Virus record (IMG/VR): IMGVR_UViG_3300036985_003045
DNA: 64,000 bases
Strand: one strand, 5' to 3'
Source: a virus
Lineage: Duplodnaviria > Caudoviricetes
Under the pieces are notes generated by a model. It did no database searches. It was not told the DNA's origin and worked only from the letters and a program-made list of their open reading frames with translations. This document shows positions 27,175-27,249 of the stretch, one piece after another (position 1 is the first letter of the stretch; each line of letters opens with the position of its first letter). The translations under genes were made by a program, and so were the position numbers.

Positions 27175-27249
27175 TTACCTATTCAAAATATAACAAGTAA
27201 CTTCAAATCCTAATCTGATATCTTTATAAGTCGGGGTTTTCCACTTCAT
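27175..27249 (-). CDS. pqqA: Pyrroloquinoline quinone precursor peptide PqqA
   Basis: Hand translation [24 protein letters not shown] (24 aa) matches the PqqA consensus W.KP...D.R.GFEVT.Y..NR with the ExxxY core; not in ORF track. Confidence 0.88.
   Translation of the reverse strand: [24 protein letters not shown]

Follow-up and report, generated by a model that had tools for sequence, protein, structure and literature searches.

Based on family models, gene context, conservation in related phages, and comparisons with earlier work, we assign a probability of roughly 0.7 to the reading that the stretch of viral DNA analyzed here carries a genuine pqqA, which acts as an accessory (auxiliary metabolic) gene of a T4-like freshwater myophage and feeds precursor to the PQQ pathway of its host. 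This stretch of 64,000 nucleotides (IMG/VR record IMGVR_UViG_3300036985_003045) is referred to as the window. The coordinates of the features at the pqqA locus are given in Table 1.

TABLE 1 Features at the pqqA locus of the window
Feature	Position	Strand	Description
pqqA	27175..27249	-	24 codons plus stop; PF08042, TIGR02107, scan pattern, dN/dS ~0.1
Translation start region	27250..27270	-	AGGA and variant late-promoter box
Hairpin	27131..27167	-	Perfect 15-bp stem, 7-nt loop, 8 nt 3' of the pqqA stop
orf48	27224..27370	-	Small conserved gene, function unknown; 26-nt overlap with the pqqA start
orf61	27370..27555	-	Trp-rich 61-aa ORF between the cyclase gene and orf48
CHASE2-class III nucleotide cyclase	27562..29646	-	Upstream same-strand gene; marker for finding relatives

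The pqqA frame runs from an ATG at 27249 to a TAA at 27175 to 27177, which reproduces exactly the ORF and the 24-residue peptide of the initial annotation. The identification of this peptide as PqqA, made there from the letters alone, holds up against both curated family models. PF08042 matches it with 35.2 bits (gathering score cut-off, 21.1) over model positions 1 to 19 of 19, and the equivalog model TIGR02107 matches it with 39.9 bits (cut-off, 20) over model positions 1 to 21 of 21, with E-values of 1e-8 to 1e-10. The peptide has the Glu16-x3-Tyr20 cross-link pair within the motif GFEVTCY, and it also has W3, P6, R12, G14, V17, and T18, which are fixed positions of the degenerate DNA pattern that we used to scan for PqqA (W-x2-P-x5-R-x-G-x-E-V-T-x-Y). 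This pattern matches once in the window and not at all in 100 shuffles of it. A sequence search of the PDB found no PqqA chain.

The proteins encoded in the window include a major head protein, a portal, a tail sheath, a large terminase, a family-B DNA polymerase, helicases, and a GH19-type endolysin; T4-like hallmark genes flank pqqA, and the G+C content is about 32%. By gene content, we assign the window to a T4-like myophage of the Melnitz/HTVC008M group, a placement made because it has curli pore genes together with a CHASE2 cyclase gene (PMC9004378). Searches of the window by tblastn with PqqB, PqqC, PqqD, and PqqE gave chance-level matches only. Identical queries found pqqB adjoining 73 sampled bacterial pqqA copies, so the negative result for the window is a meaningful one. 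These results bear out the earlier claim that no pqqB-E genes are present, and they support the phage context and the description of pqqA as a minimal auxiliary gene. Association with pqqBCDE is not universal for pqqA in any case, since 37 of the sampled bacterial copies have no adjacent pqqB and Methylophilaceae carry 3 to 12 pqqA copies per genome while their other pqq genes are single copy (PMC4109929).

To find relatives, we fetched 80 related IMG/VR loci with the cyclase as a marker. In the window, pqqA follows the cyclase gene, orf61, and orf48. In locus L247, in which the cyclase is 86% identical to that of the window, pqqA immediately follows the stop of the cyclase gene and is preceded by a GGAGGA site. 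In L286 (cyclase 80% identical), it lies about 900 bp upstream of the cyclase gene, and L248 (cyclase 72% identical) has no pqqA and only 77 bp between the cyclase and holin genes. The window, L247, and L286 peptides are of the same type, with mostly synonymous changes between the genes; the Glu/Tyr pair is retained in both relatives, and the start, stop, and ribosome-binding site are intact in all three copies. The window and L247 genes have 6.5 synonymous and 3.5 nonsynonymous differences (dN/dS, 0.09), those of the window and L286 have 10.7 synonymous and 7.3 nonsynonymous differences with synonymous sites saturated, and the dN/dS of L247 versus L286 is 0.11. The initial annotation had staked its reading on conservation and purifying selection in related phages, and both are found in L247 and L286, at a dN/dS of about 0.1. 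Within 4 kb of the cyclase gene, pqqA is missing from most cyclase-bearing relatives; this and its absence from L248 indicate that it is dispensable. Purifying selection, together with a different site in one relative and absence from another, leads us to conclude from these alignments that pqqA is a selected, yet dispensable and mobile, accessory gene. The window thus combines a bona fide virus genome with a host-derived metabolic gene under purifying selection (dN/dS, 0.09 to 0.11 among three phages, with synonymous divergence near saturation), as is expected of an auxiliary metabolic gene.

These data also bear on two readings in which the ORF has no role. Short open frames are plentiful here (97 of at least 20 amino acids in 7 kb), and one of them might resemble PqqA by accident. 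The E-values against curated models, the absence of the pattern from 100 shuffles, and the conservation of the frame among relatives refute this, and we conclude that the ORF is pqqA on these grounds and regard the probability of a chance ORF as negligible. Alternatively, pqqA and its hairpin could be a scrap of host DNA that was picked up by illegitimate recombination, has no role, and has not yet been lost. The presence and position of pqqA do vary among close relatives, and the gene is tiny and lies at a junction of convergent transcription units, as such a passenger might. However, the selection test already disfavors a neutral passenger: a dN/dS of about 0.1 was kept up over near-saturated synonymous divergence in three phages, each copy has kept its start, stop, and ribosome-binding site, and there are at least 120 intact viral pqqA copies (see below). 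We therefore consider this explanation very improbable.

The minus-strand block is in the order endolysin, nonspecific nuclease, two small genes, CHASE2 cyclase, orf61, orf48, and pqqA, which agrees with the earlier placement of pqqA as the last gene of a minus-strand unit. It faces the end of a plus-strand curli operon (CsgF, CsgG, curlin repeat, and FecR) whose last gene is holin-like. The perfect 15-bp hairpin described previously was found after pqqA, with 15 perfect pairs between stems at 27153 to 27167 and 27131 to 27145; it has a folding energy of -24.6 kcal/mol (z = -5.2 versus shuffles), and 0 of 200 shuffles fold as well. It sits between pqqA and the convergent holin-like gene (26708 to 27115, plus strand), and it is likely a terminator or RNA-end stabilizer common to both. 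L247 and L286 have a hairpin at the equivalent place 3' of pqqA, with different sequences. In a contig from metatranscriptome run X7, the 7-nt loop (27146 to 27152) is present as its reverse complement (TAAGTCT to AGACTTA), which means that this palindromic element has been flipped between strains.

A Shine-Dalgarno-like AGGA lies 7 nt 5' of the pqqA ATG, and the start region also contains TATAAATT (27261 to 27268), a variant that agrees with the T4 late-promoter box at 7 of 8 positions. We considered a dedicated late promoter for pqqA but do not propose one, because there is only this variant box and the window shows no enrichment of it. Exact matches to the T4-type late-promoter box (TATAAATA) occur at 22840, 47019, 49646, 54561, and 56589, a short distance 5' of the curli operon and of genes for the head and tail; across the window as a whole, the exact motif is no commoner than in shuffles.

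The overlap between orf48 and the start of pqqA had not been mentioned in the initial annotation. A homologue that is 56% identical to orf48 lies directly after the cyclase gene in L286, which indicates that orf48 is a real small gene too. The sequence of orf61 begins with MKKVFGRIVSEILFLLGDWVSYPM, and neither a relative among about 330 fetched loci nor a family match was found for this ORF, which is present only in the window and in a near-identical fragment (G001). Both orf48 and orf61 are absent from L247, in which pqqA directly follows the cyclase gene. A functional link between pqqA and the CHASE2 cyclase was rejected because their adjacency is not conserved. At the other end of the cyclase gene, there is a 343-bp presence/absence polymorphism (29592 to 29934), evident from joints in the X7 and X8 runs, that covers a 113-aa ORF (29612 to 29953, minus strand) and the first 18 called cyclase codons. 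Cyclase alignments of relatives begin at residues 3 to 19, so the actual start of the cyclase may be more internal.

A scan with the PqqA pattern shows that stand-alone pqqA is widespread in viruses, with at least 120 IMG/VR contigs that all have an intact ORF of 23 to 25 codons with an ATG 1 or 2 codons before the Trp. The 120 contigs listed represent 109 distinct DNA sequences and 51 peptides, with a pooled pN/pS of 0.20, and pqqB-E were found in 0 of these 120 loci. For ~60% of the listed viral copies, the 60 nt after the stop folds clearly more strongly than random 60-mers of the same contig. Among GenBank phages, tblastn found pqqA in Melnitz and three sister isolates, in the LD28 phage P19250A, and in MEP401 and MEP402. 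Matches to "Acinetobacter phage MD-2021a" were dropped as a bacterial pqqABCDE contig filed among phages; this 144-kb record (CAKLQF020000010.1; L005) has ppk and a full pqqABCDE operon, and at the pqq locus it looks like bacterial chromosome.

In all of the GenBank phage records (Melnitz, MZ577097; P19250A, KX815270; MEP401/402, OP830906/7), pqqA is unannotated. The Melnitz gene (MZ577097, 76134 to 76205) is an intact ORF that encodes MKWTKPVAQEMRFGFEVTMYIMTR. A hypothetical CDS, MelnitzEXVC044M_152 (L002, 2967 to 3075), lies on the strand opposite to this ORF and is probably a miscall that hides pqqA. The Melnitz paper names PQQ only as a medium supplement and does not mention pqqA. Gene callers miss so short a gene, and it is consequently unannotated in every cultured methylophage record that we checked. 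It is probably missing from most viral gene catalogues as well, and counts of auxiliary metabolic genes therefore understate pqqA.

Viral pqqA as such is known, and to present a phage pqqA as a new kind of gene overstates its novelty. Coutinho et al. published a viral PqqA in 2020 (PMC7678222), from the representative of VP_266, a virus population of Lake Baikal for which methylotroph hosts were predicted. Virus-encoded pqqA is also listed in a 2026 study of reservoir sediments (PMC13188868). What is new here is modest, namely, that a T4-like freshwater phage has a PqqA of a non-Methylophilaceae type. The VP_266 gene is likewise a stand-alone PQQ precursor gene of a freshwater phage and was read as an auxiliary gene supporting PQQ-dependent oxidation. 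In contrast to VP_266, the carrier here is a T4-like myophage of the Melnitz/HTVC008M type, its PqqA has a PTYKD leader of the gammaproteobacterial type, and we saw no gene for methanol dehydrogenase in the window.

Melnitz, P19250A, and MEP401/402 also have an intact pqqA of 23 or 24 codons without pqqB-E, but their peptides are of the xAxEMRFGFEVTMY type, from which that of the window differs (50 to 54% identity). The position of the gene differs as well. In Melnitz-like contigs, pqqA is often near the DNA polymerase gene and lies between homologues of the window genes at 33873 to 34334 and 33008 to 33469, and the window copy, after the cyclase gene, is therefore at a different site. Orphan pqqA copies in methylotrophs, of which a production strain has five (PMC9851590), are a further parallel. 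Such stand-alone copies track the rate of PQQ synthesis (PMC4109929, PMC9851590), and, as in the phage, they are extra precursor genes that raise substrate supply, with pqqB-G in single copy. They differ in being chromosomal and host regulated, while the window pqqA is on a lytic-type phage genome.

The dominant viral PqqA type, MWT[TK]P[AS]ATEMRFGFEVTMYVMNK, is that of P19250A, and Melnitz and MEP401/402 have close variants of it. All of these phages have cultured Methylophilaceae hosts, and "Methylophilaceae type" here denotes the peptide of such phages rather than the PqqA of the hosts themselves. With this type, the peptide of the window has only 11 of 22 residues in common. In a scan of genome collections that targeted the P-x-Y leader class of PqqA, the best among the matches listed was WETPTYKDLRFGFEVTMYIYNR (17 of 22 residues, with the exact PTYKD motif), from two Cycloclasticus metagenome-assembled genomes and Methylococcaceae UBA975 (L131, L209, and L164), and Halomonas-type peptides were next among those listed (16 of 22). 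The best listed bacterial matches are canonical pqqABCDE operon copies. Their peptides are of equal length to that of the phage, with the 17 shared residues counted over 22 from Trp3, and have the same PTYKD leader and GFEVT-x-Y core; Ile11, Leu13, Cys19, and Leu22 distinguish the phage peptide from them. In L131, L209, and L164, pqqA directly precedes pqqBCDE, whereas the phage pqqA is alone. A PTYxD-x-R-x-GFEVT motif was found, mostly as PTYKDLRFGFEVT, in 31 of 401 genomes of the order of UBA975, a sample that also took in a Cycloclasticus symbiont genome.

Among the phages, pqqA of the window type sits in those with cyclases 80 to 86% identical to that of the window, while cyclase-bearing relatives with the Methylophilaceae-phage type have cyclases only about 47 to 52% identical to it, and we conclude from this comparison that the pqqA type tracks the phage clade. 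Window DNA was found in lake-water, sediment, and freshwater-sediment metagenomes (nine studies). The initial annotation had proposed a PQQ-dependent, methylotroph-like host, probably Methylophilaceae-like. A PQQ-making oxidizer is indeed favored, but the Methylophilaceae are not (11 of 22 versus 17 of 22 residues). The host is probably a PQQ-making gammaproteobacterial oxidizer of methane, methanol, or hydrocarbons in the GTDB order Methylococcales rather than a member of the Methylophilaceae. This order includes the Cycloclasticus genome found. The placement is at order level at its finest. There is a moderate case for a Methylococcales-type host and for a pqqA acquisition separate from that of the Melnitz clade, and since its basis is a 24-residue peptide and a habitat, we offer it as a lead rather than a result. 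A point against such a host is the phage G+C content of 32%, which is low for typical Methylococcales. A more ambitious proposal is that phage pqqA is matched in its leader to host PqqD and that its type is a host marker, so that the clade of the window, L247, and L286 would infect Methylococcales-type methane or hydrocarbon oxidizers and would have gained pqqA at another genome site, in an event separate from that in the Melnitz-like clade; we put this forward tentatively and would not favor it at even odds.

A model of the complex between the phage PqqA and the PqqD of UBA975 scores 0.88, compared with 0.02 for the best control, on a scale for which the calibration set has no chain under 30 residues; this mark is reached by 51 of the 78 solved complexes and by 2 of the 108 mismatched pairs. 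The modeled interface uses leader residues 1 to 15 of the peptide. The model thus supports binding of the phage leader to Methylococcaceae PqqD. Contigs of two metatranscriptome libraries cover the pqqA locus, although DNA carry-over is possible and strand and level are not readable from contigs.

PqqA is a stoichiometric substrate of the PQQ pathway, with one peptide consumed per PQQ molecule. The leader is recognized by PqqD, the bond between Glu and Tyr is formed by PqqE, and the remaining steps to the cofactor are carried out by a protease, PqqB, and PqqC (Barr et al. 2016 and Zhu and Klinman 2020, both cited in PMC9851590). During infection, a phage transcript that includes the preceding genes and ends at the hairpin would give rise to the 24-residue precursor. 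Host PqqD would bind its N-terminal leader, host PqqE would cross-link Glu16 to Tyr20, and a host protease, PqqB, and PqqC would complete PQQ. If expression of host pqqA falls after phage takeover, the phage copy would keep up or raise the supply of PQQ, because one peptide is used for each PQQ. This supply to periplasmic methanol, alcohol, or glucose dehydrogenases would sustain energy production until lysis. We infer translation, processing by the host enzymes, and benefit to the phage, and we assume a need for new PQQ synthesis within a single infection. PQQ is a stable cofactor, which is a point against such a need.

The same first steps would also serve a peptide with the opposite effect, one that binds host PqqD or PqqE, is poorly processed, and either throttles PQQ synthesis or diverts the radical-SAM machinery for takeover or superinfection control. 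The initial annotation had listed a decoy or inhibitor as its alternative. A decoy would need the predicted binding of the leader to PqqD as well, and the window and L247 peptides have Cys at position 19 rather than the Met or Leu of most copies. However, position 19 also varies in bacterial PqqA (Met or Leu), and L286 has Leu. All fixed positions of the scan pattern are intact, including the Glu/Tyr pair, and the equivalog score is full length, so the phage sequence is fully canonical, which disfavors the decoy model. Moreover, the same gene recurs in fully host-like form in many phage lineages, which fits supply better than sabotage. We consider a decoy role improbable. It is also conceivable that the precursor mainly serves a PQQ-dependent dehydrogenase encoded by the phage itself, as in Lake Baikal, where virus populations encode methanol dehydrogenase and the VP_266 representative also encodes PqqA (PMC7678222). 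No PQQ-dependent dehydrogenase was found among the window proteins scanned, and we regard this explanation as quite improbable here. Supply of precursor to the host pathway is the reading that we prefer.

The systematic nonannotation of phage pqqA is a general point that extends beyond this genome. By bringing the one component that the pathway uses up, a phage shows which step limits cofactor supply in infection. The PqqA peptide type may be a cheap clue to the hosts of uncultured phages; in the present case, the hosts indicated are methanotroph-like gammaproteobacteria of lakes. All aerobic methane and methanol oxidizers depend on methanol dehydrogenases, which have PQQ as their cofactor. 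If the proposed role and host are correct, these phages would give direct support to the PQQ-dependent oxidation of methanol in the methane filters of lakes.
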